Assembly: GCF_008065095.1 (NCBI RefSeq)
Contig: NZ_CP042911.1
Location: 3,780,001-3,812,000, forward strand
Source: Gemmata obscuriglobus
GTDB taxonomy: Bacteria > Planctomycetota > Planctomycetia > Gemmatales > Gemmataceae
Direction: 5' to 3'
DNA length: 32,000 nucleotides
Of this stretch, positions 1 to 14,851 are shown in pieces; position 1 is the first letter of the stretch; each line of letters begins with the position of its first letter. Made by a program: the position numbers and the translations under genes. A model generated the notes under the pieces. The model was not told the origin of the DNA and searched no databases. It saw nothing but the letters and a program-made list of their open reading frames with translations.

Positions 1-778
1 GCCGGTCGATGGTGTGGTCCTGGTCGGGCTCGTAGTCCAGCGCGAAGCACACGGTCGCGGCTTGGTGGTTGCCGGGGGCGGCGCGGTCCGGGGCGTGCGG
101 CTCCCGGGTGTCGGCGCTCGATTCGGCCCCGGTGACGTGTTCGACCTTCGCGAGCGGCAGCAACTCGCCGGTCTCGGTCGCGTCCACGAAGTACGGCGCG
201 GTGAGCGCGATCCGCGTGCCGAAGTTTTGGGCCACGCCGAGGACCGCGGTGACGGTGTCGCCGTCCGTCTCGACCCGCACCGGCACGAACGGCTGGATCA
301 GCTTGACCCGGCCGGCGGTGATGTGTGGGGCCAGCATCTCCAGGAGCACCGCCAGCGCCACCCGCGGCTCGTGGCACAGCTTCGAGACGCTCCCGTTGCC
401 GGGGTTGAGTCTGGGGTTCTTCGCGGCGTCTTCCGAGAGCGGGTAGTTGCGCCGGTAGAAGTCGCGGACCTTGGTGCGGAACTGGCGATAGGTTTTGGTG
501 CTGCCGCGGTCCTCGATCCACGGGTGCTCGTCCGGCGGGACCGCCTGCGAGGTGAGCTGCCCGCCGATCCAGCCGGTCTCCTCGGTGAGCAGTACCTTCA
601 GCCCGTTGCGGGCGGCGGCGAGCGCGCACGCGACCCCGCCCACGCCGGCCCCGACGACCACCAAATCGGCCTTCAGCTCTCGCACGGGCGGTTGCGCGGC
701 GCCCGCTCGGGCGTGCGCGGGGAGCAGGTGGGCGAACGGGGTGAAGGCCGAGAGCGAGAGGAATCCGCGGCGGTTCAT
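1..778 (-). CDS. FAD-dependent oxidoreductase, N-terminal part (gene continues beyond window start)
   Basis: The minus-strand reading frame starts at the ATG at 778-776 and has no stop inside the window, so it is absent from the ORF track. The N-terminus MNRRGFLSLSA looks like a twin-arginine signal. It is followed by the Rossmann dinucleotide motif DLVVVGAGVGGVACALAAARNG. The plus-strand ORF 14..1888 is its shadow over this stretch. Confidence 0.8.
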   Translation of the reverse strand, partial: MNRRGFLSLSAFTPFAHLLPAHARAGAAQPPVRELKADLVVVGAGVGGVACALAAARNGLKVLLTEETGWIGGQLTSQAVPPDEHPWIEDRGSTKTYRQFRTKVRDFYRRNYPLSEDAAKNPRLNPGNGSVSKLCHEPRVALAVLLEMLAPHITAGRVKLIQPFVPVRVETDGDTVTAVLGVAQNFGTRIALTAPYFVDATETGELLPLAKVEHVTGAESSADTREPHAPDRAAPGNHQAATVCFALDYEPDQDHTIDR

Positions 779-937
779 TTCGTCGGCTCCGGGGAACGGG
801 GTACCCCAAGGTATCGGCTCGTCGGGCGTCGCGAAAGCACCCCCAGCCGCCCGCGCGAATGCCATTGCTGCCCGGAAGGTGCAGGGGTACGCTACAGCCG
901 GGATCGACTTCTGTTCACGCCCGTCGCGGACTCGCTC

Positions 938-1888
938 ATGAAACTCTCCTTCAGCCCGCTGCAACTGCTCAGCCCGGTGCAACTCATCTTCTGCTTGATC
1001 CTGTTCTTCCTCCCGTGGATCGAGCTCTCGTGTACGCTCCCGCCGGATGTGGCCAAGAACGCGCCGCCCGGCGAACTGGAAAAGCTGAAAAAGGATACGG
1101 GGATCGATCCGTCCAGGCCCATCCGCATGTACACCCAGAGCGGGCTCCAGATCGCCACCGGTGACGTTTCCGTGTCGCCGGATTTTGAGAAGGGTGTTGA
1201 GCGCGTGAGGGGCGGTGCTGGTGCCGGACCCGGTCCCAAGTTCGGTCCGGACCCTTCCAACAAGGCCGACGGCCAGACCGCGCCGCTGCTGTTCCTCTTT
1301 CCGGTCGCGCTTCTCGCCGGGATCGTGATCGGGTTCGTCCCGTGGCCGCACCTCGCCCGGCGGCTGGTTCTGGTCGTGTGCTGCCTGGGGGCGATGGGCA
1401 TCGTCGGCGCGCACGCGGCCATCGGGTTCCCGCTCGAGAAGGAGATCGCGAAGCAGAAAGAGAAAATGAAGGGGGGCGGCGCGTTCGGGGCCGCGCCCGG
1501 TGCGAAGGCGGCTCCGGGCACGGCCGGCGAGCCGGAGGTGTTTCGGGTCCGGTGGCAGATCCCCCTGTACCTGACGCTCATACTGCTGCTCGGCGCCGCC
1601 GGCACCGCGTTCCTCGACGCCGGCCTGACCGCGAAGAAGAAGCCGAAGCGCCGGTACCGTGCGGACGAGGAGTACGAAGACGATGAGGAGGAAGAAGAAC
1701 GGCCGCGGAAGCGGCGGCCGAAGGCGGTAGACGAAGACGAGGACGAGCGCCCCGCCCGTAAGCCGAAATTCGAGGTGGTGGACGAAGACGAGGACGAGCC
1801 GCCGCGAAAGAGGCCGAAGCCCCGGCGGCGGGACGAGGACGAGGATGACGACCGGCCCCGACGGTCGCGCCGGCGCGACGACGATTAA
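938..1888 (+). CDS. Hypothetical polytopic membrane protein with long mixed-charge (D/E/R/K/P) C-terminal tail
   Basis: An ATG at 938 lies in frame within ORF 14..1888. About four hydrophobic segments are visible (LIFCLILFFLPWI, LLFLFPVALLAGIVIGFV, LVLVVCCLGAMGIVGAHAAIGF, LYLTLILLLGAAGTAFL). A roughly 85-aa tail of DEDEDE/RPRKRRPK repeats follows. The gene is divergent from the oxidoreductase gene. Confidence 0.6.
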   Translation: MKLSFSPLQLLSPVQLIFCLILFFLPWIELSCTLPPDVAKNAPPGELEKLKKDTGIDPSRPIRMYTQSGLQIATGDVSVSPDFEKGVERVRGGAGAGPGPKFGPDPSNKADGQTAPLLFLFPVALLAGIVIGFVPWPHLARRLVLVVCCLGAMGIVGAHAAIGFPLEKEIAKQKEKMKGGGAFGAAPGAKAAPGTAGEPEVFRVRWQIPLYLTLILLLGAAGTAFLDAGLTAKKKPKRRYRADEEYEDDEEEEERPRKRRPKAVDEDEDERPARKPKFEVVDEDEDEPPRKRPKPRRRDEDEDDDRPRRSRRRDDD

Positions 1889-1955
1889 CCGCGCGAGCCC
1901 CGGGAGCAGGCATCCGAACCTGTTCCCGGGGCTCATGCGTTTTGTGCGGCGCGTC

Positions 1956-2531
1956 TCAGTCCTCGCGCTTGGCGTCGGCGATGCTCTTGATCTTTTCGCC
2001 GAGCAGGGCCACGTCGAACGGCTTCTTGAACACGTCGTTGAAGCCGTACTGGTGGAGCTGCTCGGGCGCGGCCTCGTCCTCGCTCGCCAGCCCGACGATC
2101 AGCGTCGTGGCGAACGCCTCGTCCTTGCGCAGGTTGGAGACGATCTGGATCGATTCGGCGCGGCCGAGACCCAGGTCGATGATGATGGTGTCGGGGTGGA
2201 AGCTGCTCGCCAGGATGCCCGCCTGGAACCCGCTGTCCGCCAGCTCGAACTTGTAGTCGTCGTTCTCGGGCAGCAGCTCCTTGATCCGGTCGTTGAACAG
2301 CCGCTCGGTGCCGATGAGGAGCACCTTGTGCCATTCCTCTTCTTCGAGTTCACCCAGCGGCATGCCGTGTTCCTTGAGGAACCGGATGAGCTGCTCGCGG
2401 GGGATGCGCCGGTCCTGGCTGCCGGGGATGCGGTACCCCTTCAAGCGGCCCGAATCGAACCACTTGGACACGGTGCGCGGGGCGACCTTACAGATCTTCG
2501 CGACCTGTCCGGTGGTGAACACCTTTTTCAT
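1956..2531 (-). CDS. DNA-binding protein with N-terminal excisionase/MerR-type HTH fused to a C-terminal receiver-like (REC) domain
   Basis: The N-terminus MKKVFTTGQVAKICKVAPRTVSKWFDSGRLKGYRIP is a typical excisionase-family HTH. The C-terminal half has a receiver-like layout: KVLLIG, then IIIDLGL carrying the putative phospho-acceptor Asp, then FKKPF as the K-P motif. GGAG lies about 9 nt upstream of the ATG. Confidence 0.75.
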   Translation of the reverse strand: MKKVFTTGQVAKICKVAPRTVSKWFDSGRLKGYRIPGSQDRRIPREQLIRFLKEHGMPLGELEEEEWHKVLLIGTERLFNDRIKELLPENDDYKFELADSGFQAGILASSFHPDTIIIDLGLGRAESIQIVSNLRKDEAFATTLIVGLASEDEAAPEQLHQYGFNDVFKKPFDVALLGEKIKSIADAKRED

Positions 2532-3167
2532 GGCGAGACACTCCGTTTGAACTCGCTAACCCCGCGCCCGTTTCGCCTTTTCGGCCGTCCTGGCGGGCTT
2601 GACGGGTCCGCAGCCGTCTGGTGCGGACCCGCAGGGTCGCGGGGCGTGCCGCACACGACCGGGGCGTCGTGGCGGCGGGTGTATGAACGTCCGGCGGGCC
2701 GATTCCGGAATACTTAGCACTGCGCGCGCCGCTCGCACCATTCCTGCTCCGCCGGCGGGTTACGCGGGCGGAGCGGGCCGGGCAAAAGTGCCCGGTGGCG
2801 CGGGTGACGGTTGCGACGCTAACTCCATCGGCTACACCAAGCACCCGTCTTCGCAAAACCCGCGAAATTGGGAGGTTGGTAAGCGCCGTGGGTTCCGGCG
2901 GGGGTATAGCCCACTGGATCGGGCGAACGGTCCAAGGCCGACCACCGGCCTCCGGGCGCTCGCACTGTCAGTCACAGTGATCGTTCGGGCTGGATGTGTA
3001 ACTTGGGTGAGAACTCTTCGCCGAGACGTGCCTTCCGTGGCAGAGGGACCGGTAGGTCCGGTTACTCCGGTTCTACCGACCCGCGACACAGTATAGGCCG
3101 ACGGGCAAGAGCCGAATGAGGCGAGTGTAAACGCGGGAGCGGACGCGCAATGTGTGCGGGTCCGCGC

Positions 3168-3638
3168 TCACACCCGCTTTGTAAAAACTGCCATTCCGTC
3201 ACCGTCGGCGTAGAGGTCCGGCACTGTCGCGACGTGCGCGTAATCGCACTTGAGATAGAACCGGCGCGTCGGCTCGTACTTCGCGGTCGAGGACGTTTCG
3301 ATCACGAGCAACCGTCCGCCCGCGGCGCGGACTTCGTGCTCCGCGAACGCGAGCAGCTCTTTGCCGATGCCCCGGGCCTGACGGTCGGCCGCGACCGCGA
3401 TCCACCACACGTACCAGGTGCGGTCGGTCATCTCCTCCGGCGCGAAGTACACGTAGCCGATCGGTCGGCCCGCCTCTTCGTACAAGACGGCCCGGTGCCC
3501 GTAGTCGTCGCGGTTGGTGGCGAAGTAGTCCGCGAGAACGCCGTGGAGCGTCTCGATCTCGCCGGGGTGGAAGAACCCCGTCCCCGCGGACAGGTCCGCG
3601 AGCGCGTGCGCGTCGGCCGGTGTGATGGGTCGGATCAT
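3168..3638 (-). CDS. GNAT family N-acetyltransferase
   Basis: This uses an internal ATG of ORF 3168..3890. The acetyl-CoA binding motif A is present (WIAVAADRQARGIGKELLAFAE). Length is about 156 aa, and the acetyltransferase fold pattern continues as LVIETSSTAKYEPTRRFYLKCDY. Confidence 0.8.
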   Translation of the reverse strand: MIRPITPADAHALADLSAGTGFFHPGEIETLHGVLADYFATNRDDYGHRAVLYEEAGRPIGYVYFAPEEMTDRTWYVWWIAVAADRQARGIGKELLAFAEHEVRAAGGRLLVIETSSTAKYEPTRRFYLKCDYAHVATVPDLYADGDGMAVFTKRV

Positions 3639-3717
3639 GAGCGGGAGTGTAAACCCGCTCCGCAAGAAGGTAAACTGGAGTCGCGATCCGTTGCCGCATT
3701 CCCCAACCGAGACGCCC

Positions 3718-4212
3718 ATGCGAAAACCCGTGCGGAATCTGCTACTCGTCGTTGGGGGCTGCGCGCTCGTCTTGTTACTGGTTGAAACATCCCGACTGAT
3801 GTGGGTCGGCAGCACCGACCTGACAGTGGAGTTCGTCATCACCGATGCCGACACCGGGCAACCGCTGAACGGTGCAGAAATCGTGGTCACCTCTCGTGGC
3901 GGCTTTTACGAAGGTGACAATCGGCTCCGGGCGAAAGGGGTGCGGGAGGAAGAGTTCATTCTGAAAACGGACGCGAATGGTGCCGCCGAGTACGTGTGTC
4001 GCGATTCAATGTGCCACGGTCAGAGTAGCCCTTTGGGGCTGAACGACACGTTCGCCGTTTACATGCCACACTGGAACATCACGGTGAAGGCCCTCGGATA
4101 CTCGTCAACAGCACTGCCCCATCTCGAGCAATTTATGCGAAGCGCCGAACGGACGGGACCGAGACGATCGAAGGTTGTCGTTCCGATCGCGTTGCACCGC
4201 GACGCCTCGTAG
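3718..4212 (+). CDS. Membrane-anchored protein with carboxypeptidase-regulatory-like (CarboxypepD_reg-type) beta-sandwich signature
   Basis: The ATG at 3718 gives MRKPVRNLLLVVGGCALVLLLV, a signal anchor. The following pattern VEFVITDADTGQPLNGAEIVV...LKTDANGAAEY...ITVKALGY is typical of CarboxypepD_reg-like domains. GC3 is visibly lower than in neighbouring genes. Confidence 0.5.
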   Translation: MRKPVRNLLLVVGGCALVLLLVETSRLMWVGSTDLTVEFVITDADTGQPLNGAEIVVTSRGGFYEGDNRLRAKGVREEEFILKTDANGAAEYVCRDSMCHGQSSPLGLNDTFAVYMPHWNITVKALGYSSTALPHLEQFMRSAERTGPRRSKVVVPIALHRDAS

Positions 4213-4244
4213 AGCGAACCTCTGCCGACCGGCGCGCGTCCGGG

Positions 4245-4877
4245 GTGCGGAGGATCAACCCCATGTCCCGGTTCCACCGCAAAACCGCCCCGGGTGTTCG
4301 TAACGGTCGCGTGCAGCGCACGAACAACTGGGAACGGTCGCCGAGCCCGTACACGCACACACCGGCACGGCTGGTGATCGACCGCCGGCGCCCGAGCGCC
4401 GGCTACCGGCACTTGCTACTCAAGCGGGATGTCGAGCGGTTCATCGCCCTCATCCCGAACTGGGACAAATTGGCGGTTGGGCTGGACGTGATTTGCCTCG
4501 ATCACGGCCGCGACGATTGCGACGGGTGGTACAACCGCGGCGTCCTCGGCGTGTGCGCCTGGTCCGAGCAGATGCGGTACGAACTCCGAGGCGACTGGTA
4601 TCGCGGGCACCGGGCTTTTCTCGAACGCATTGGCGCCCGGGTGGAGGTAGATGAGCCCCGTGACGCTCCGGTGATACACTGGACCGACGACACTGCTCGC
4701 GCGTACCAACTCTGCCACGTGTTCCTTCACGAACTCGGGCACCACGCGGACCGCATGCACACCCGCACGAAGCGAGACAGCGGCCCGCGCGGCGAGCCGT
4801 TCGCCGAAGGCTACGCGTTCGATCTGGAGGCGGTCGTTCTGGAACGGTACTTCGCAGCGTTCGGGGTGCCGGAGTGA
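4245..4877 (+). CDS. Hypothetical HExxH zinc-metallopeptidase-like protein with very basic N-terminus
   Basis: This is a 210-aa ORF, with an alternative start at 4263 (MSRFHRK). It contains LCHVFLHELGHHADRMH, which is HExxH followed by a further His, reminiscent of the ImmA/IrrE or SprT-like minimal metallopeptidase motif. I recognise no other family signature. Confidence 0.55.
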   Translation: MRRINPMSRFHRKTAPGVRNGRVQRTNNWERSPSPYTHTPARLVIDRRRPSAGYRHLLLKRDVERFIALIPNWDKLAVGLDVICLDHGRDDCDGWYNRGVLGVCAWSEQMRYELRGDWYRGHRAFLERIGARVEVDEPRDAPVIHWTDDTARAYQLCHVFLHELGHHADRMHTRTKRDSGPRGEPFAEGYAFDLEAVVLERYFAAFGVPE

Positions 4878-4911
4878 GATCGGCGCGGCAACTGAAGTAC
4901 CACCGAACGGG

Positions 4912-4931
4912 CGGGGCATTCATTCGCCCCG
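4912..4931 (+). terminator. Weak candidate hairpin downstream of the HExxH gene
   Basis: CGGGGC (4912-4917) pairs with GCCCCG (4926-4931) across an 8-nt loop, 35 nt after the stop codon. There is no clear U-tract. Confidence 0.3.
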
Positions 4932-5069
4932 GTTGTGCCGCAAATCCTTCCTCAACCTCAACGACATGACGCGGATCACGACAACCCGCCGCACCCTGTT
5001 TGCCGGTCGCTCATTCGTCCAAGCGGCTCTGCCTGCCATCCGCCCGCCTGCGCCCGGGACGTAGTGGAA

Positions 5070-5098
5070 TTGACAGTTACGCGGGGTGATGGAACAAT
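5070..5098 (+). promoter_or_regulatory. Candidate sigma70-type promoter for the Cys-rich gene pair
   Basis: TTGACA at 5070-5075 is followed by a 17-nt spacer and AACAAT at 5093-5098, about 34 nt upstream of the ATG at 5132. The -10 element matches only 4 of 6 positions. Confidence 0.3.
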
Positions 5099-5131
5099 TC
5101 AAATCAGTACAGGGTGATAAATCGAGACCAC

Positions 5132-5599
5132 ATGACGCGGGCACTCCTTCACATCGGGCTGGCGGTGGCACTTGTGCTTTCGCCCTCCCGTTGCTGCTGT
5201 AGAGCGGATTGGTTCGTTCCATCCGCGCGCCCCGCTCGCACGTCCACACTCAAGACACCGGCTCCGATTCCTGTCGAGTCCAGTGTCTGCTGTTTGAAGG
5301 TGAAAAAGGCGTGTTGCGGTTCTCAACCGCACGAGCACTCATCGACCGCCCCCGAGAAGCCCACGCCGGCCCGCGTGCCCGGCTGTGCTTGCTGCCCAGA
5401 GCGGGCCGAAGCGGTCCCGCTTAAAAGCACCGTTGCCGATTCGGCACCACAGCCGACCGGCGAACGGCTTTCCCTCGCGCTGAGCGATCTTCTCGGCGCC
5501 TCCGCACACGCCGACTTGACCCGGAGAAACATCCAGCCGGGTGTCGGCGTTGACGCTCGCCGTTCCGCGCTCTTCGAACGCCACGTTTTGCGCTGTTAG
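5132..5599 (+). CDS. Hypothetical Cys-rich protein (CCC/CC/CC/CxCC motifs) with N-terminal hydrophobic signal-like segment
   Basis: The ATG at 5132 lies within ORF 5114..5599. The product starts MTRALLHIGLAVALVLSPS and then carries SRCCCRA, SVCCLKVKKACCGS and PGCACCPE, giving 11 Cys in about 155 aa. Coding status is less certain than for the next gene. Confidence 0.45.
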   Translation: MTRALLHIGLAVALVLSPSRCCCRADWFVPSARPARTSTLKTPAPIPVESSVCCLKVKKACCGSQPHEHSSTAPEKPTPARVPGCACCPERAEAVPLKSTVADSAPQPTGERLSLALSDLLGASAHADLTRRNIQPGVGVDARRSALFERHVLRC

Positions 5600-5714
5600 A
5601 CAGAATTTCGTGGTCACAACGACCCGAATTGGGATAAGCTGTGTCGTCTTGGCCGGGTTGTCCGGCGCGAACAACGTTCGCATTCACTCCATTACACATT
5701 ACTGGGACTGTGAC

Positions 5715-6134
5715 ATGAAGCTGTTTGCCATCATCACGGCGGGGCTGATGACTGTTGCGGGCGGGGTGTACTTCTACTCCTCTTCCACCTGCTCAACGGC
5801 CACGTGCGGCGCTCCGGTTGCGAAGAGCGGCGGCTGTTGCGCGAAGGAACAGGCCGTGGCGGACTGCTGCGCGGCGAAGGACGAGTGCTGCGAGACCGTC
5901 GAAGCCTGCTGTGCGATCGCGTCTGGCGTCAGCACCCAGCCGAAGGCGACCGCTTCGGCTTGCTGCGCAGGCAAGGACGAGTGCTGCCTCGTGCAGGCCG
6001 CCTGCTGCACCGCGGAGAGCGTTCGCGCGGCCGCGAAGCCGCGCGAGATCAAAGGCTGCTGCGATGAGGCCTGTTCGGCTTCCGCCATTCAGGCCGTCGC
6101 CGGTGCTGCAGCGAGCATCGCGAACGTAAAGTAA
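5715..6134 (+). CDS. Hypothetical membrane-anchored Cys-doublet repeat protein (8 CC pairs, 19 Cys in 139 aa)
   Basis: The ATG at 5715 lies within ORF 5541..6134. An N-terminal TM anchor (MKLFAIITAGLMTVAGGVYFY) is followed by GGCCAKEQAVADCCAAKDECCETVEACC...ACCAGKDECCLVQAACC...GCCDEAC. There is an internal duplication: AAGGACGAGTGCTGC occurs at 5877-5891 and again at 5973-5987. A terminator-like hairpin follows the gene. Confidence 0.6.
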   Translation: MKLFAIITAGLMTVAGGVYFYSSSTCSTATCGAPVAKSGGCCAKEQAVADCCAAKDECCETVEACCAIASGVSTQPKATASACCAGKDECCLVQAACCTAESVRAAAKPREIKGCCDEACSASAIQAVAGAAASIANVK

Positions 6135-6149
6135 ACGGCGCCAGTTAAG

Positions 6150-6190
6150 AGGGCACGGGCGGCTAATCGCTGCTCGTGCCTTCGTTTTCC
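6150..6190 (+). terminator. Intrinsic-terminator-like hairpin after the Cys-doublet gene, overlapping the trmB stop codon
   Basis: 6150-6163 pairs with 6169-6182, giving about 14 bp including three G-U pairs. The core is GGCACG/CGTGCC plus GCGGC/GCTGC, with loop TAATC. CGTTTTCC follows. The trmB stop codon (6163-6165, minus strand) sits at the top of the stem and loop. Confidence 0.55.
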
Positions 6191-6975
6191 GCTTCAGTTG
6201 GATCGGCGGCCACCGTCACCGGTGCGCTGGTGCGTTCATAGACCGCACGCCAGACCCCTCCGCCTTTCTCCAGGGCTTTTCTCTCAAAATTGGTGGCGAA
6301 GCCGGCATCCGTTCGCGGCGCGGCGAGCTGTTCCTCTGCGGGACGGAGTTCGAAGCAGGGCATCGCTCCGACGATTGCGGTCATCACGCCGAAGTACTCT
6401 TCCACATCGGTTGCGATGTAGAGCCGGCCGCCTTCGCGGATGGCACGGGCAGCGTCGGCCGCGAACTCCGGGGTGAACACCCGGCGCTTCTTGTGTCGCG
6501 CCTTCCACCACGGGTCCGGAAAGTAGACGTGGACGGCTTGAACGCTTCCGACCGCGACGAAATCGCGGAGGACGAGTTTCGCGTCGGCGCACGCGGTCTT
6601 GACGTTCGGGATCTTGCGGACCGCGTAGCGGCTGGCCGCGTAGAGCTGGTACTTCCGGACGATCTCGATGCCCAGGAAGTTCGTGCCCGGGCGAGCGATC
6701 GAGGCGTTCAGGAGGAACAGCCCTTTGCCCGTCCCGACCTCGATTTCGACCGGGTTCGCGTTGCCATAAAACTGCTCCCAGTCGATGCGATTGAGGGCGA
6801 CCGGCGCCGCGGGAAGGGCCGCCGCTGCGGCCTTGAGGCCCACCGTCCGCGCCCCTGCTTCTCGAGGCAGCTCCCAGACCCACGGCGCGAGTTCTTCGGC
6901 CGAAAGACGCCGCGGCTTACGCACCCCGAAGCTCCTCCATCTTGCCCAGCGGTACACCGGTGATAACTGCCTCAA
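6163..6975 (-). CDS. trmB: tRNA (guanine-N7)-methyltransferase
   Basis: The SAM-methyltransferase motif IEVGTGKGLFL and the TrmB signature VHVYFPDPWWKARHKKRRV are both present. The start is uncertain. The ATG at 6975 overlaps the upstream fabZ-like gene by 59 nt, whereas an in-frame GTG at 6924 would overlap it by only 8 nt. Confidence 0.85.
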   Translation of the reverse strand: MRQLSPVYRWARWRSFGVRKPRRLSAEELAPWVWELPREAGARTVGLKAAAAALPAAPVALNRIDWEQFYGNANPVEIEVGTGKGLFLLNASIARPGTNFLGIEIVRKYQLYAASRYAVRKIPNVKTACADAKLVLRDFVAVGSVQAVHVYFPDPWWKARHKKRRVFTPEFAADAARAIREGGRLYIATDVEEYFGVMTAIVGAMPCFELRPAEEQLAAPRTDAGFATNFERKALEKGGGVWRAVYERTSAPVTVAADPTEAENEGTSSD

Positions 6976-7426
6976 AGGCGCGCTCGGCGCCGACGTATCC
7001 CTTCACCAAGAAGCGCGTGAGCCGCCGGTGGACGCGGAGCCCCGTCCCGACGAGCACGAGCCGCTCGCCCGGGCGCACCGTGCGGACGAACTTGGCTTCG
7101 TCCACGCCGCCGAGGCCGAGCAGCGAGCCGGCCTCGCCGATTTTCTGCGTGGAATAATAGTACCCGCAGAGCTGCGCGGCCGCCTCGCACATCAGCACGC
7201 CCGGCATCAGCGGGAACCCGGGCATGTGGCCGCGGGTCCAGAAATCGTCCGGTGTGGCGTCCTTGAAGCCCACGATGACGTGCGCCGACGGGTCGACGTG
7301 CACGATCCCGGTGAGCATCTCGAACTCGTACCGGTGCGGGTTAACGGCCCGGATCTCCTCGATCCCGGCAATGGGCCGAGAGAAGTCGAACGCGGTCGGA
7401 TCGAGCACCGGTCCTGCGGCGGACAT
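6917..7426 (-). CDS. fabZ: 3-hydroxyacyl-ACP dehydratase FabZ-family (hotdog fold) protein
   Basis: An internal ATG at 7426 is preceded by AAGGAG at 6-nt spacing. The active-site region RGHMPGFPLMPGVLMCEAAAQ matches the FabZ His...Glu motif pattern. Confidence 0.75.
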   Translation of the reverse strand: MSAAGPVLDPTAFDFSRPIAGIEEIRAVNPHRYEFEMLTGIVHVDPSAHVIVGFKDATPDDFWTRGHMPGFPLMPGVLMCEAAAQLCGYYYSTQKIGEAGSLLGLGGVDEAKFVRTVRPGERLVLVGTGLRVHRRLTRFLVKGYVGAERAFEAVITGVPLGKMEELRGA

Positions 7427-7472
7427 GAACACTCCTTGACAGCGGTTGGGTCGGTCGTGGGCGACCAGCGGT

Positions 7473-8423
7473 TCATTCAACGAGTTCGAGCACCTGCGGC
7501 AGTTCGGTCACGAGCGCGTCGGGGCGGAGGGCCGGGTCTTTGAGCTGTTCCCCGGTCGCGGTGAGGCTGGCCTTGTCGCCGGCGAACAGGGCCGTGCGGA
7601 AGCCGTGCCGCTTCGCCGGGCCGATGTCACGCTCCAGGTTCGATCCGACGTGCAGAACCTGGGCGGGAACGAACCCGCGGCCCGCCGCCAGCTCGGCCGC
7701 CGCCTTGAACAGCGTGTCCGACGGCTTGCGGGCTTTCCGGTCGCTTGAAACGATCTGCATCGCGGCCGGGATGACGGCGCGCAACTCGAAGTCGGGGTTC
7801 TGCTGCCGCACGCAGCGCTCGAGTTGCGCGGCGGTGAAGCACTGCCCGTCCGCGAGTAACCCCTGGGCGACCCCGCGGGCGGCGAGTTGCGTGAGCGCGT
7901 CGGCCGCGCCCGGGTACGCGCCGGCCCCTTGAATGCTGGCGTGGTAGAAGTACGCGATCTTCTTGACGTATTCCGCGAGCGTTCCGTATTGCATCGCGTC
8001 GAACGTGTACTCTTTCTGCTGCAACTTTTTGACGATGTCGTCCCAGATCCGTTCGGTTTGAACCTCGGGGAACTTCTCGCCCCCCCCGCCGGTGAGCCGG
8101 AGGGTGCTGAACGCCTTGTTGAACAGCTCCCGCATGTACTCCGAGGGCGCCCCGGGCTTGCGGCTCATCGAGTTCCACATTTTGAACTCTTTGATCACCT
8201 TCTCGAGCGCCGCTGCGGTGATGAAGTCCTTTTCGTGCTCGAACTGGATGTCGCCCGTGGGGACGGAAACGAGCGTCCCGTACACGGTCCAGAACACGCA
8301 CTTGACGGGCATCGCTGTGAGAGACGGCTTGGCCTTGGGCGCGTCGACCTTGGGCGCCGGGGGCCACGGCAGGTCCGGACGGTCGTGGATCTTCTCGACG
8401 TACTGCTCGAGTGTGAGCGGCAT
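7473..8423 (-). CDS. HAD-superfamily-like protein with degenerate catalytic motifs
   Basis: This is a 316-aa ORF. Its C-terminal half has the HAD motif III/IV layout (RKARKPSDTLF, HVGSNLERDIGPAKRHGF). Motif I reads VFWTVYGTL instead of DxDGTL. Confidence 0.6.
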   Translation of the reverse strand: MPLTLEQYVEKIHDRPDLPWPPAPKVDAPKAKPSLTAMPVKCVFWTVYGTLVSVPTGDIQFEHEKDFITAAALEKVIKEFKMWNSMSRKPGAPSEYMRELFNKAFSTLRLTGGGGEKFPEVQTERIWDDIVKKLQQKEYTFDAMQYGTLAEYVKKIAYFYHASIQGAGAYPGAADALTQLAARGVAQGLLADGQCFTAAQLERCVRQQNPDFELRAVIPAAMQIVSSDRKARKPSDTLFKAAAELAAGRGFVPAQVLHVGSNLERDIGPAKRHGFRTALFAGDKASLTATGEQLKDPALRPDALVTELPQVLELVE

Positions 8424-9115: not shown

Positions 9116-10235
9116 TCACTTCGCTTTCACTTTGTTGCTTTTGGCCGCCTTGTGTCGCAAGTAGGCGTGCATGAACTGGTCGAAGTTGCCGTCGAGCACA
9201 TCGTTGACGGCGGGCGTCTTCACGTCGATACCGTCGCGCTCGTCGCGGACCAGCGTGTACGGCTGAAGCACGTAGCTGCGGATCTGGGAGCCGAACGCGA
9301 TTTCGCCCTTGGCGTCGTAGCTCTTCACCGCGTCGCCCATCCGCTTCTGCTCTTCGACGGCTTCGAGCCGGGTCTGAAGCATCTTCAACGCCTCGGCCTT
9401 GTTCTTGTGCTGGCTCCGGCCCATCCGGCACTCGGCCCGGATGCCCGATTTGTGGATGAGGCGCACGCCCGACTGCGTCTTGTTCACGTGCTGACCGCCC
9501 GGCCCGCCGGTGCTGAAGGTCTGCACCTCGTAGTCGGTGTCCTTGATGACGATCTCGATGTCGTCGGGCAGTTCGGGGAGCACGTCGATCGCCGCGAACG
9601 AGGTCTGGCGCGTGTCGCCGCCGCCGAACGGGCTGATGCGAACGAGCCGGTGGACGCCGATTTCCGACTGCATGTAGCCGTAGGCGTAGGGGCCGACGAT
9701 CTTGAACGACACGCTCGCGACGCCGGCCTCCTGGTTCGGCTCGATGTCCTCGTCCTCGACCGAAAACCCGTGCCGCTGCGCCCACCGCCCGTACGCGCGG
9801 AACAGCATCTCGGCGAAGTCGCACGCGTCGGTGCCGCCGGCACCGGGCTTGATCGTCACGATCGCGGACCGCGAGTCGTGCTTCCCGCCCATCATGATCT
9901 GAAGCTCGAACGCCTCGTACTGCGTTTCGGCCTTCTGGAGCGCGGGCTCCAGCTCGGACTCGAACGCGGCGTCCTCCTCGGCCAGCTCGGCCATCGCCTT
10001 GATGTCGTTCGCTGCGGCCGTCAGCTCTTCGTAGGGCTTGAGCAGCGCGTTACACACCTTCAACTGGCCGATGACGCTTTTGGCCTTCTCGGGGTTGTTC
10101 CAGAAGTCGCCCTCGGCCTGCTTGGCCTCGAGCTGGTCCCGCACCGCTGTTTTGCCAGCGATGTCAAAGAGAGTCTCGCACTTGGGTGAGCCGGGTGCAG
10201 AGTTCGTCGGTCCGGCGGCGCAGGTCCGGGTTCAT
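9116..10235 (-). CDS. prfB: Peptide chain release factor 2, requiring programmed +1 ribosomal frameshift (segments 10235..10167 and 10165..9116)
   Basis: Frame 0 encodes MNPDLRRRTDELCTRLTQVRDSL and ends at CTT TGA C (10169-10163). After a +1 shift the frame continues DIAGKTAVRDQLEAKQAEGDFWNNPEKA. The SPF motif (RISPFGGG) and GGQ motif (GGPGGQHVN) are present. Confidence 0.92.
10163..10169 (-). promoter_or_regulatory. RF2 autoregulatory +1 frameshift site CUU UGA C
   Basis: The exact heptamer CTTTGAC sits at codons 23-24 of prfB, and the downstream frame is open in +1. Confidence 0.9.
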
Positions 10236-12066: not shown

Positions 12067-12192
12067 AGAGGCGCTGCGCTTTTGCCCCTGACGCTGAGGC
12101 ACCCGCGTGGACAAATGTGGGATGTGGGTGCTGGCGTCTCGCCGGTCGGCCGGTTAGCATTTTTTCACGCCCCGATCCGATGGGAACCTGAC

Positions 12193-12780
12193 ATGCCCAC
12201 CTCCACGTTCGACACGGCACACCTGAACGATTGCCTTCAGCGCTGGCGCAACGGCGAACGTGAGGCGGCTGACGAACTGCTCAACTCCACGAAAGAGCGG
12301 CTCGAACGCTTGGTCCGTCGGATGTTTCGGGCGTTTCCGAATGTCCGCCCCTCTGCGGACGTTGGGGATGTGCTTCAGAACAGCATGGTTCGGCTCCTGC
12401 GCTCGCTCCGCACGATGCGCCCGGCAACGACGCGCGATTACTTCAACCTCGCGGCGGTGCACATTCGCCGCGAACTGCTCGACCTGGCCCGGCGGTGCAA
12501 GAGCAAGCCGTGTGTGTCGTTCGAATTCGCGGGCGTGACCGGATCGCGGCACGAACCGGCGGTCGAGGTGCCGGCTGATTTGGATTTCTGGGTTCGGTTC
12601 CATCAGGCGGTCGACGAACTCCCCTCCGAGGAACGCGAGGTTGTCGGGCTAATTTTTTATCACGGCTGGAAACAGGCGCAGATCGCGGAACTGTTCGGAG
12701 TCGACGAGCGGACCGTTCGGCGCCGCTGGCGGCGCGCCTGCGAGCACCTTCGCAAGCTGGTGGGCGACGACGGCCCGTGA
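12193..12780 (+). CDS. ECF-type RNA polymerase sigma factor (planctomycete/acidobacterial TIGR02999-like type)
   Basis: The ATG is at 12193. The N-terminus LNDCLQRWRNGEREAADELL...LVRRMFRAF resembles the Sigma70_ECF family opening. Region 4 HTH is LPSEEREVVGLIFYHGWKQAQIAELFGVDERTVRRRWRRA. Confidence 0.8.
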   Translation: MPTSTFDTAHLNDCLQRWRNGEREAADELLNSTKERLERLVRRMFRAFPNVRPSADVGDVLQNSMVRLLRSLRTMRPATTRDYFNLAAVHIRRELLDLARRCKSKPCVSFEFAGVTGSRHEPAVEVPADLDFWVRFHQAVDELPSEEREVVGLIFYHGWKQAQIAELFGVDERTVRRRWRRACEHLRKLVGDDGP

Positions 12781-12786
12781 CCGCGG

Positions 12787-14706
12787 CTACCGCACGAGCA
12801 CCCGCAGGTCTCCGGCCCGCCTGGTTAAGCCGATGCGGTCGAGGTACTCGCACACCGGCACCGCGTACTTTCGGGTGGTGCCGAGGAGGTCCCGGATCTC
12901 GGCCACCGTAGCACCGGGGCCGCCCGTCAAACGTTCCGTCACCCGCCGGCGCATCTCGGCCTCCGCTTCTGCGGAGAGGTAGAACTCGGAAGTGATGCGC
13001 ACGAGGAACCCCTCGGCGCACGCGACCTCGAAGATGTCACCGAGGGCCGCCGCGTTGCCGCCGGCCTGGTTCGCGAACTCCTTCGGCTCCGGCGGCGTGA
13101 ACCCGCTCGCCGCGTGCGCGTCCACGATCTTGTCTTTCAGCTTCCGCTGGTTCGCGCTCAGCTTCGGCTTGAAGTCGGCCCGGGCGATCCGCCGCGCGTC
13201 TCCGACGACCTTTTTCGCGCGGATCAGGCGGTCTGTGACCGCCTGGAGCAGTTGCTCGTCGCCGACGTAGTCGAGCCGGGCGAGCACCTTCTGCCGGTCG
13301 TGGTTGGTGACCAGCGGGTGATCGGCGTGCAGCACGGCGAGCGTACCGAGGATGCGCGTTTCCAGTTCCGCGATGCGGTCCGGGTGGACCAGAAGGGTGT
13401 GGTTGGCCGCGAGCGTGATCGGGGTCAGCTTCCCCGCGCTGATCAGCCCGCTTACCAGAAGTTCCACGTGCTCGGGCTCCGCGCCCGCGGCACGCACGAG
13501 GTCGTCCGGGGTGAGCCCGTGGAACTCGGCGAACCACGCCGTCGCGAGGGCTCGCGTTTCGGGGGCGTCCGACCACAAGCGCTCGATCTGCTCGATGGCC
13601 TCGGTGTGCCGCCGCCGCACCTTGGCGGCACTCGGCTGAAGCACCTGACCGCCGCCGAGCGTGCGCTCGGCCGACGAGTCGCGCACGACGAACGGTTGGC
13701 CCCACACGACGGTCACCGGGTCTTCGAGGAAAAGTTGGGCGAGCCCCCACTGACCGGGGGGAACAGTGTCGCAGTCGAGGAGCGAGACCGTCGCCATCAC
13801 TTCCGCCGTGCCGACGTGCAGCCGCACCGGGAGCCGGTGCTTGATCGCGTGCGGTCCGTCGGCCGGAACCGTGAGCCGCACGGTCACGACCTTGCTCGCG
13901 GCGAGGTAGCCGGGGCGGGCGAGTTCCTGCCCGCGCCGCACCGCCTCGTGCGGCACGCCCGCGAGGTTCACGGCGGCGCGCTGCCCGCGCCGCACCGCCT
14001 CCACCGGGCGGCCGTGGTTGTTCAGCCCGCGCACCCGCACCCGTTCCGAGGTGCCGTCCCCCTTGTGCCACTCCAGTTCGTCGCCGGTTGCTACCGAACC
14101 CGACACGATGGAACCGGTGACGACCGTGCCGTGCCCTTGAACAACGAACGCGCGGTCGATCGGCAGCCGCACCCATTCGGCCCCGGTGCGCTGTTGAACC
14201 GTGGCGCACAACCCCGCCAGCGCCGCGCGCAGTTCCGCAATGCCGAGGCCGGTGTGGGCGGAGGTGTGGACAATCGGCGCGTGTTCGAGGAACGAACCCT
14301 GAACCAGCTCGCGTAGTTCCAGCCCGACGACCTCGCGCGTGGTTTCGTCCACGAGGTCCGCCTTGGTGAGCGCGATCAGCCCGTATCGCACCCGGAGCAG
14401 TTTGAGGATTTCGAGGTGCTCGCGGGTTTGCGGCATGACCGAGTCGTCCGCGGCCACGACCAGCAGCGCGAGATCGATGCCGGTGGCACCCGCGAGCATG
14501 TTTTTGACGAACCGCTCGTGACCGGGCACGTCGACGATGCCGAGCCGGACGGCGCCGAGTTCCAGGTGCGCGAACCCGATGTCGATGGTGATGCCGCGGG
14601 CCTTTTCTTCCGGGAGCCGGTCGCAATCGATGCCGGTGAGCGCTTTGACCAGTGACGTCTTGCCGTGGTCGATGTGTCCGGCTGTGCCCAGGATCAGGTC
14701 GCGCAT
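12787..14706 (-). CDS. selB: Selenocysteine-specific translation elongation factor SelB
   Basis: The ATG at 14706 gives [17 protein letters not shown] (G1). DVPGHERF (G3) and TKADL (SelB-type G4) follow. The C-terminal winged-helix region ends in [26 protein letters not shown], typical of the SECIS-binding domain. Confidence 0.9.
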
Positions 14707-14851
14707 GGTCGTGTTCGTCCGTCGGCCGGGGAGGACGAGTATTCTACCGCGCACGCGGTGCGGACGAGCCGCGAGAGTTGCTGGCGTGGTCGGAACGAAC
14801 GACGCCGGTGAAGTGTCCCGCCCGGCACCGTTGCGAACGCGCTGACCGGTT

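Follow-up and report, generated by a model that had tools for sequence, protein, structure and literature searches.

We describe a pair of adjacent genes, here named ORF1 and ORF2 (open reading frames 1 and 2), from the planctomycete Gemmata obscuriglobus, which encode small proteins dominated by pairs of adjacent cysteines (CC doublets). The genes lie on the plus strand at positions 5132..5599 and 5715..6134 of a 32,000-nucleotide stretch of contig NZ_CP042911.1 (RefSeq assembly GCF_008065095.1, positions 3,780,001 to 3,812,000), which we refer to as the window. Sequence comparison indicates that they constitute an undescribed, lineage-restricted family, and the best explanation of their distribution is a vertically inherited two-gene operon confined to the Gemmataceae. 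In broad terms the pair is, we infer, best read as a metal- or redox-active cysteine module. More specifically, and with a confidence somewhat short of even, we propose that ORF2 is a membrane-anchored, metallothionein-like protein whose doublets would form thiolate clusters, with ORF1 as an accessory cysteine-rich membrane partner and a constitutive-type promoter driving both.

ORF1 and ORF2 are conserved genes for cysteine-doublet proteins

ORF2 encodes a protein of 139 amino acids, 19 of which (14%) are cysteine, and ORF1 one of 155 amino acids with 11 cysteines. The ORF2 protein begins with a predicted membrane anchor, in which the residues MK are followed by 19 hydrophobic residues (residues 1-21, nucleotides 5715-5777), and it ends in a conserved alanine-rich tail with a terminal lysine. 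Sixteen of its cysteines form eight CC doublets, which start at residues 41, 51, 58, 65, 83, 90, 97 and 115. Within the blocks CCAAKDECCETVEACC and CCAGKDECCLVQAACC the doublets recur every seven residues, exactly as an earlier reading of this DNA, made from the letters alone (the sequence-only reading), had claimed. CC module 1 (5865..5912, plus strand, residues 51-66) and CC module 2 (5961..6008, plus strand, residues 83-98), an internal duplicate of the first, both read CC-x5-CC-x5-CC. The duplication that the same reading had pointed to in the DNA is present and extends further than it saw: the 15-mer AAGGACGAGTGCTGC at 5877 (5877-5891) and again at 5973 (5973-5987) belongs to a direct repeat of 32 nt (5860-5891 and 5956-5987), whose copies are 84% identical and 96 nt apart. 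Shuffled versions of ORF2 are expected to hold 2.46 doublets against the 8 observed (P=5e-4), and those of ORF1 0.71 against 5 (P=1e-4), so that the doublets of both proteins are no by-product of their cysteine content.

The coordinates of the two plus-strand genes stand as first proposed, and both have homologues. ORF2 has 9 homologues in a collection of 5.8 billion proteins, and 34 of 1.84 billion cluster representatives match it; ORF1 has 13 homologues, with E values from 2e-48 to 4e-10. In the close homologue set of ORF2 the N-terminus MKLFAIITAGLM does not vary and conservation extends to the CC doublets, and a hydrophobic stretch of 19-21 residues at the position of the anchor is kept across the family. 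The closest genome, that of Gemmata algarum JC673, shares 94% nucleotide identity; between the two genomes 16 codons of ORF2 have changed synonymously and 9 non-synonymously, with all cysteines kept. The corresponding omega (NG86) is 0.14, compared with 0.07 for the neighbouring FabA-like gene and 0.05 for the neighbouring HAD gene.

A competing frame had to be considered on the opposite strand. An antisense ORF (5774-6088, minus strand, 104 codons) mirrors ORF2, since the codons TGCTGC that specify a CC doublet read CAGCAG, or QQ, on the other strand. GC content at third codon positions (GC3) cannot pick the strand here, because the antisense frame has the same third codon positions and accordingly seems coding by this measure. 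We rejected the antisense frame as a gene on the grounds that it is interrupted by a stop codon in JC673, while ORF2 shows synonymous-biased change in the same comparison. The homologues, the codon changes in JC673 and the antisense stop together indicate that ORF1 and ORF2 are real genes under purifying selection.

Cysteine pattern and composition of the ORF2 family

The statistics that follow are drawn from an alignment of 42 ORF2-type sequences. Nearly three quarters of all cysteines (72%) fall in CC doublets, and 105 of the 227 intervals between successive doublets are exactly 7 residues, with the runner-up value seen only 17 times; the CC positions and the 7-residue period noticed in the single sequence are thus conserved in its homologues. 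The commonest unit is the three-doublet run, CC-x5-CC-x5-CC, which occurs 38 times. The x5 spacers have preferences of their own: the third position is Gly in 29 cases, Gln in 18, Cys in 14 and Lys in 13, the second is Pro in 13, and Gly or Pro is found in 44 of the 105 spacers (42%), including the form xPGxx. The residue that precedes each doublet is acidic or small.

The number of modules varies by duplication and deletion, with one extra module in one member (P0001) and most lost in two others (P0027 and P0028). In distant members module 1 is replaced by CC-x2-PC-x2-C-x3-C-x2-CC-x2-C-x2-CC, which contains CxxC. Whole doublets are also swapped as a unit, from CC to SS (P0024, P0027) or from CC to AG (P0003), and 28 of the 42 members have an odd number of cysteines.

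The composition of the extramembrane domain is strongly skewed towards small residues (A 19.7, C 16.2, S 9.5, T 7.8, V 7.4, G 7.1 and P 6.0%), with few large hydrophobic residues and only about 1% aromatics (L 2.8, I 1.8, H 0.8, F 0.7, Y 0.3, M 0.2 and W 0%). The domain is mildly acidic, with a mean net charge of -3.2. Lys and Arg are equally frequent on the two sides of the anchor (0.88 and 0.86), which gives no signal of topology.

Structure prediction and the helical-bundle proposal

The sequence-only reading had suggested that the 7-residue period might reflect a regular helix lined with cysteines, as in the copper storage (Csp) proteins. In this scheme each CC-x5-CC-x5-CC block of ORF2 would be a helix with its cysteines on one face, and the two blocks, or an oligomer, would form a hairpin or bundle that encloses Cu(I). 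The periodicity is compatible with it: a repeat of seven places the doublets at heptad positions a and b, the third cysteine found at spacer position 3 in 14 cases falls at position e on the same face, and in the subclade to which the window belongs, where Ala, Glu, Lys and Leu abound in the spacers, a helix may yet form. An AlphaFold2 model of ORF2 does draw helices at residues 58-69 and 89-100, though with very low confidence. Over the whole protein the mean predicted local distance difference test score (pLDDT) is 35.6 and the predicted template modelling score (pTM) 0.19, with no residue above 50; the underlying alignment is shallow (10 sequences), which makes this weak evidence. The search for a helical hairpin or bundle with inward-facing cysteines therefore returned no confident helix in ORF2. 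Beyond the low pLDDT, the Gly or Pro in 44 of the 105 spacers, xPGxx among them, and the lack of core-forming residues that would offer a hydrophobic surface for helix packing leave a Csp-like bundle unsupported. Neither ORF2 (E<=10) nor the 42 family members (E<=1) match Csp/DUF326, and no such match is found among the sequences of the Protein Data Bank (PDB). Csp proteins, moreover, use CxxxC and CxxC spacing and not CC doublets. We consider a helical copper store quite improbable.

ORF1 is a cysteine- and proline-rich partner

ORF1 starts at the ATG at 5132, which matches the family N-terminus, whereas the GTG at 5114 does not. The signal-like N-terminus and the CCC, CC-x6-CC and CxCC motifs attributed to it were all found, at residues 21-23, 53-62 and 85-88. 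The protein is rich in Cys and Pro, and consists of an N-terminal hydrophobic helix ending in CCC, the CC-x6-CC pair, CxCC-x-ER, a QPTGE motif and a C-terminal RHVLRC. Its 11 cysteines are CCC21-23, CC53-54, CC61-62, C85-x-CC87-88 and the C-terminal C155, the last of which had escaped the sequence-only reading. C54, C85, C87, C88, E90, R91 and residues 150-155 (RHVLRC) are invariant in the alignment. AlphaFold2 with the family alignment gave a mean pLDDT of 47.6, predicting a helix at residues 3-28 (pLDDT 70-80) that ends in the CCC and a second at 142-154, with the rest below 50.

Locus architecture and expression signals

A putative sigma-70-type promoter precedes ORF1 at 5070..5098 on the plus strand, with the -35 element TTGACA at 5070-5075, a 17-nt spacer and the TG-extended -10 element AACAAT at 5093-5098. 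In a consensus scan it scores 10 of 12 matches and is the sole such site in the region. The promoter-like element noted from the letters alone is thus present, and it is kept in relatives: the upstream regions of ORF1 from nine loci align with TTGAC, a gap of about 17 nt and a GGAAyAAT-like -10, at constant spacing. The sequence of the promoter spacer varies among the nine loci and contains no conserved operator. On this basis a regulator-binding operator within the promoter was rejected, and the conservation of both elements around an unconserved spacer suggests that this is probably a plain, strong promoter of the sigma-70 type without a conserved operator.

The 115-nt intergenic spacer between the genes (5600..5714, plus strand) carries a weak ribosome-binding site, GGGA at 5704-5707; in relatives the site before ORF2 is GGAGAAC, 5-8 nt ahead of the ATG. 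Consensus folding of this spacer gave no real or conserved RNA structure, and an Rfam scan of 4800-6400 found no family and only one sub-threshold chance match. Downstream of ORF2 lies a terminator (6149..6193, plus strand), whose hairpin had also been noted. It comprises a 15-bp stem (6149-6183) with a folding free energy of -33 kcal/mol (z -4.93; none of 200 shuffles was equally stable) followed by a U-rich tail. Since the hairpin and the 3' end of trmB, a convergent gene (ORF 6163-6975, minus strand), overlap, the terminator probably acts in both directions.

Distribution, operon structure and loss of ORF1

All matches of a genome search with a 10-sequence alignment of ORF2 were in Gemmataceae or in unclassified Planctomycetota metagenome-assembled genomes (MAGs), one MAG being labelled Singulisphaera. 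The wider survey of homologues and their surroundings revealed a conserved Gemmataceae pair beside the trmB block, without metal genes. In most loci the pair is convergent to a housekeeping block of trmB, a FabA-like dehydratase and a HAD-like hydrolase (6163-8423 in the window), and the upstream neighbour differs from locus to locus, being a Kelch/NANM gene with an MFS gene, a sigma-70/RND-adaptor fusion, DUF188 or MsrA. The pair persists despite altered flanks in Frigoriglobus (locus L014) and in the most distant branch (L015), where the partner has a transmembrane helix with LCCC and a C-terminal HHALRC. In another locus (L017) an ORF1-like frame lacking its 5' part precedes ORF2. The sequence-only reading had also placed the genes in a lower-GC islet; a dip does exist, but it is marginal, with a GC of 0.63 where 0.65-0.70 is typical, and GC falls further in other 500-nt bins. 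Horizontal transfer on the strength of such an islet was rejected as an explanation, given the marginal dip and the conserved place that the pair holds beside trmB family-wide.

Three lineages (JC673, L011 and L018) have independently lost ORF1 and kept ORF2 along with the promoter. In L011 the deletion has joined the promoter straight to ORF2. In L018 the promoter motif likewise stands immediately before ORF2, and a few initial codons of ORF1 have survived with it; in JC673 what is left of ORF1 is a degraded stretch from its last ~15 codons, DARFSALSEHHVLLC. The conserved promoter that stays with ORF2 after deletion of ORF1, together with the persistence of the pair in altered synteny, indicates that ORF1 and ORF2 form an operon, and the threefold loss of ORF1 identifies ORF2, on this comparative evidence, as the core component and ORF1 as accessory.

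Several observations concern the loci that lack ORF1. Collinearity between JC673 and the window begins abruptly at window position 5538, inside ORF1 (position 5824 of the JC673 locus, L007), with an MFS transporter upstream instead, and nothing equivalent to window positions 1-5537 is present in the 12.4 kb that this locus covers; the region was rearranged at strain level, and the breakpoint falls within ORF1. In L011 most doublets of ORF2 (4647-5087) are gone, with CC changed to SS or SL, and the second module is deleted; P0027 and P0028 show a similar loss of doublets and have 9-10 cysteines. ORF2 may decay once its partner is gone, yet JC673 lacks ORF1 and has kept all 19 cysteines of ORF2.

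The pair matches no described family

Searches of Pfam and NCBIfam at E<=10 gave no match for ORF1 or ORF2, and Pfam at E<=1 with 42 ORF2 and 14 ORF1 family members produced scattered single chance matches and nothing consistent. Sequence profiles against the PDB (E<=10) found nothing for ORF2 and one chance match for ORF1 (E 1.6). The homologues are annotated in their source databases as 'hypothetical protein' or not at all, and the literature on cysteine-rich or vicinal-cysteine proteins of Gemmata and the Planctomycetes yielded nothing specific. Membership of Csp/DUF326, of the metallothionein families (including the bacterial SmtA type), of ArsD and of MerT/MerC/MerF was rejected for want of a sequence match, and that of the granulins and the chlamydial cysteine-rich envelope proteins for want of a Pfam match. 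The suspicion that this is not a described family is borne out by the Pfam, NCBIfam and PDB-sequence searches for both proteins.

The same surveys bear on the possibility that ORF1, ORF2 or both are precursors for modification by enzymes encoded elsewhere, whether by cysteine modification of the kind seen in ribosomally synthesised and post-translationally modified peptides (RiPPs) or by lipidation, with the CCC S-acylated at the membrane interface. Both are small and cysteine-rich, and each has an extremely well conserved end that could serve recognition: MKLFAIITAGLM for ORF2, RHVLRC-COOH for ORF1. At 139 and 155 amino acids with membrane anchors they are, however, atypical of RiPP precursors. 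No maturation enzyme is found among the called genes with Pfam assignments in the 32-kb window or in related loci L001-L006 and L015-L019, and no maturase, protease, transporter or radical-SAM/MNIO gene adjoins the pair in ~14 loci. We regard this explanation as very improbable.

Other features of the window

Directly upstream of the pair, an ORF at 4245-4877 (plus strand) shows good coding statistics, with a GC3 of 0.82, and has an HExxH-like motif, HELGHH, and no Pfam match. Further downstream, prfB (9116-10235, minus strand) contains a programmed +1 frameshift site, CTT TGA C, at 10163-10169 on the same strand: a short upstream frame, MNPDLRRRTDELCTRLTQVRDSL, ends in a stop codon, and the PCRF/RF-1 domains resume in the +1 frame. 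A gene for the selenocysteine-specific elongation factor SelB (12787-14754, minus strand) suggests that the organism probably makes selenoproteins; it is adjoined by a gene for an extracytoplasmic function (ECF) sigma factor (12082-12780, plus strand).

Discussion

Our data suggest a model in which ORF2 is held at the membrane by its single-pass anchor and its extramembrane domain lacks an intrinsic stable fold. The duplicating CC-x5-CC-x5-CC modules would wrap soft metal or metalloid ions, for which Cu(I), Zn/Cd(II), Hg(II) and As(III) are candidates, into thiolate clusters at the membrane surface, and the role of the protein would be to buffer or sequester these ions. ORF1, likewise predicted to be single-pass, would contribute the CCC in which its membrane helix ends, the CC and CxCC sites and the invariant C-terminal cysteine, and in a proposed interaction of the two proteins plausibly hands ions to or from ORF2.

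This metallothionein-like reading rests on the composition of ORF2, the absence of an autonomous fold, the odd cysteine counts, the modular and unit-wise gain and loss of doublets, and the precedents for its motifs. In its extramembrane domain the family has the high cysteine content in CC, CxC or CxxC motifs that characterizes metallothioneins (16.2% Cys, 72% of it in doublets, with CxxC in distant members) and their near absence of aromatics and histidine (W 0, F 0.7, Y 0.3 and H 0.8%). The low pLDDT fits a domain that folds only around metal. As for the Cys-lined helical metal- or redox-binding module first suggested for this locus, its broad part agrees with the CC pattern, the composition and the conservation, and its helical form is unsupported. 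Metal binding itself we infer, and the choice of ion and the topology of the cysteine domain, periplasmic or cytoplasmic, are likewise put forward conditionally.

A number of points weigh against this reading. Metallothioneins are small soluble proteins, and those known from bacteria are, to our knowledge, soluble and cytoplasmic; ORF2 has 139 residues, a hydrophobic anchor of 19-21 residues, and a cysteine content over the whole protein (14%) at the low end for the class. Nor does it show homology to a described metallothionein family in Pfam or NCBIfam. The promoter spacer, lacking a conserved operator, gives no sign of metal induction. The neighbourhood in the window is one of housekeeping genes (trmB, FabA-like, HAD, tsaE and prfB). 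The sequence-only reading had seen no metal efflux, chaperone or regulator gene next to the pair, and there is none anywhere in the 32-kb window; a metal transporter, chaperone or metal sensor is likewise absent from both the window and the called genes of ~14 related loci. Finally, if the cysteine domain is periplasmic, it would struggle to keep free thiolates in that oxidising compartment.

The last point leads to the opposite view of the cysteines, in which ORF2 is an exported, oxidised envelope or redox protein whose doublets form vicinal or intermolecular disulfides, so that it would either be cross-linked into the cystine-rich envelope of planctomycetes or act in the periplasm as a buffer or switch between thiols and disulfides. 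The N-terminus, MK plus 19 hydrophobic residues, resembles a signal anchor and, like the mild acidity of the domain (mean net charge -3.2), is compatible with export; no lipobox or cleavable signal-peptide motif was found on inspection of the sequence. Relatives within the Planctomycetes-Verrucomicrobia-Chlamydiae superphylum offer a parallel in the Chlamydia proteins OmcA and OmcB, which are cysteine-rich envelope proteins, but Pfam shows no match to the granulins, to the chlamydial cysteine-rich outer-membrane proteins or to another disulfide-rich family. The frequent Gly at the centre of the x5 spacer, with Pro sometimes at position 2, would suit tight turns between doublets, and the loss of doublets as whole units also fits self-contained vicinal disulfides. 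Vicinal disulfides are nevertheless rare and strained, and we know of no precedent for eight in one protein. An odd cysteine count, seen in 28 of the 42 members, is unusual for disulfide frameworks, and together with the gain and loss of modules and the unit-wise replacement of doublets it is easier to reconcile with a plastic thiolate cluster than with a fixed set of disulfides. An oxidised protein is, in our judgement, somewhat unlikely.

A gene for the oxidative-repair enzyme MsrA (MsrA/PMSR) adjoins the pair upstream, in divergent orientation, in L014 (4654-5511, minus strand) and L017 (3540-4151, minus strand), two loci that are otherwise unlike in their flanks. This adjacency, which would favour an oxidised protein, may reflect a link to oxidative stress or may be coincidence; it is found in just 2 of ~14 loci.

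One may also ask whether the two proteins together represent a novel membrane thiol system, a reading that we consider unlikely in either of its versions: a two-protein relay that captures soft metal or metalloid ions at the membrane on stacked CC-x5-CC sites, or a redox capacitor or switch based on vicinal disulfides. Were the relay version true, no bacterial metallothionein before it would have been anchored in a membrane and served by a partner of its own; the disulfide version would place up to eight vicinal Cys-Cys disulfides in a redox capacitor or switch of the planctomycete envelope, and either would define a new structural class of CC-doublet repeat.

Returning to the metallothionein-like proposal, metal binding by ORF2 would make it a bacterial metallothionein-like protein of new design, tethered to the membrane, assembled from heptad modules of CC doublets and accompanied by a cysteine-rich partner. 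It would represent a new solution to metal buffering in the Planctomycetota, a phylum in which little is known of metal homeostasis or of the chemistry of the envelope. If the doublets prove to be oxidised, the family would instead be a rare instance of repeated vicinal disulfides. The general impact of such a small, lineage-restricted family is moderate; the regularity of its motif and the two-protein membrane arrangement are unusual.

Comparison with known systems

The mercury transport proteins MerT, MerF and MerC are small membrane proteins with a vicinal cysteine pair within the first transmembrane helix or at its end, from which Hg(II) is passed onward to further cysteine pairs. ORF1 resembles them in that its predicted N-terminal helix ends in CCC and more CC sites follow, and differs in having one helix where the Mer proteins have two to four. 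Neither ORF1 nor ORF2 has a Pfam or NCBIfam match to the Mer proteins, and the window contains no merR, merA or merP.

Csp proteins share with ORF2 a periodic arrangement of many cysteines, proposed to form the lining of one surface and to hold many Cu(I) ions, and the Csp1 class is exported. They differ in being confident four-helix bundles with CxxxC/CxxC spacing that assemble into tetramers, whereas ORF2 has no confident helix, spacers rich in Gly and Pro, and a membrane anchor. An overview of the Csp proteins has been published (PMC11672702).

Bacterial parallels to the spacing of ORF2 are found in the As(III) metallochaperone/repressor ArsD and in an ArsR. In ArsD of E. coli R773, Cys112-113 and Cys119-120 form a CC-x5-CC motif (PMC4562236), and ArsR of A. 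ferrooxidans binds As(III) through CCx5C in a trigonal site (PMC11672702). Both are bacterial proteins with vicinal cysteine pairs at the spacing found in ORF2, but they are soluble, folded proteins of ars operons, thioredoxin-like in the case of ArsD and winged-helix in that of the A. ferrooxidans ArsR. ORF2 and its family have no Pfam match to ArsD or ArsR, and no ars gene lies in the 32-kb window.

There is also a likeness with the gamma domain of limpet (patellogastropod) metallothionein, whose cysteines occur only as CC pairs, in the pattern CCx5CCx4CCx6CCx7CC, and hold a Cd4(SCys)10 cluster (PMC7826182, PMC10235030). The limpet domain, with its CC pairs at short regular spacing, evolved as a modular add-on, and the modules of ORF2 likewise duplicate and vanish. 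It belongs to a soluble animal protein but, comprises ~35 residues with ~26% Cys and is fused to a classical beta1 metallothionein domain, whereas ORF2 is bacterial and anchored, with ~14-16% Cys, longer linkers and a partner gene, and the two have no sequence relationship. The likeness is one of pattern, an analogy and not homology; if our proposal is correct, the CC-pair cluster of the limpet type would have been invented twice, independently, with ORF2 as the second instance.

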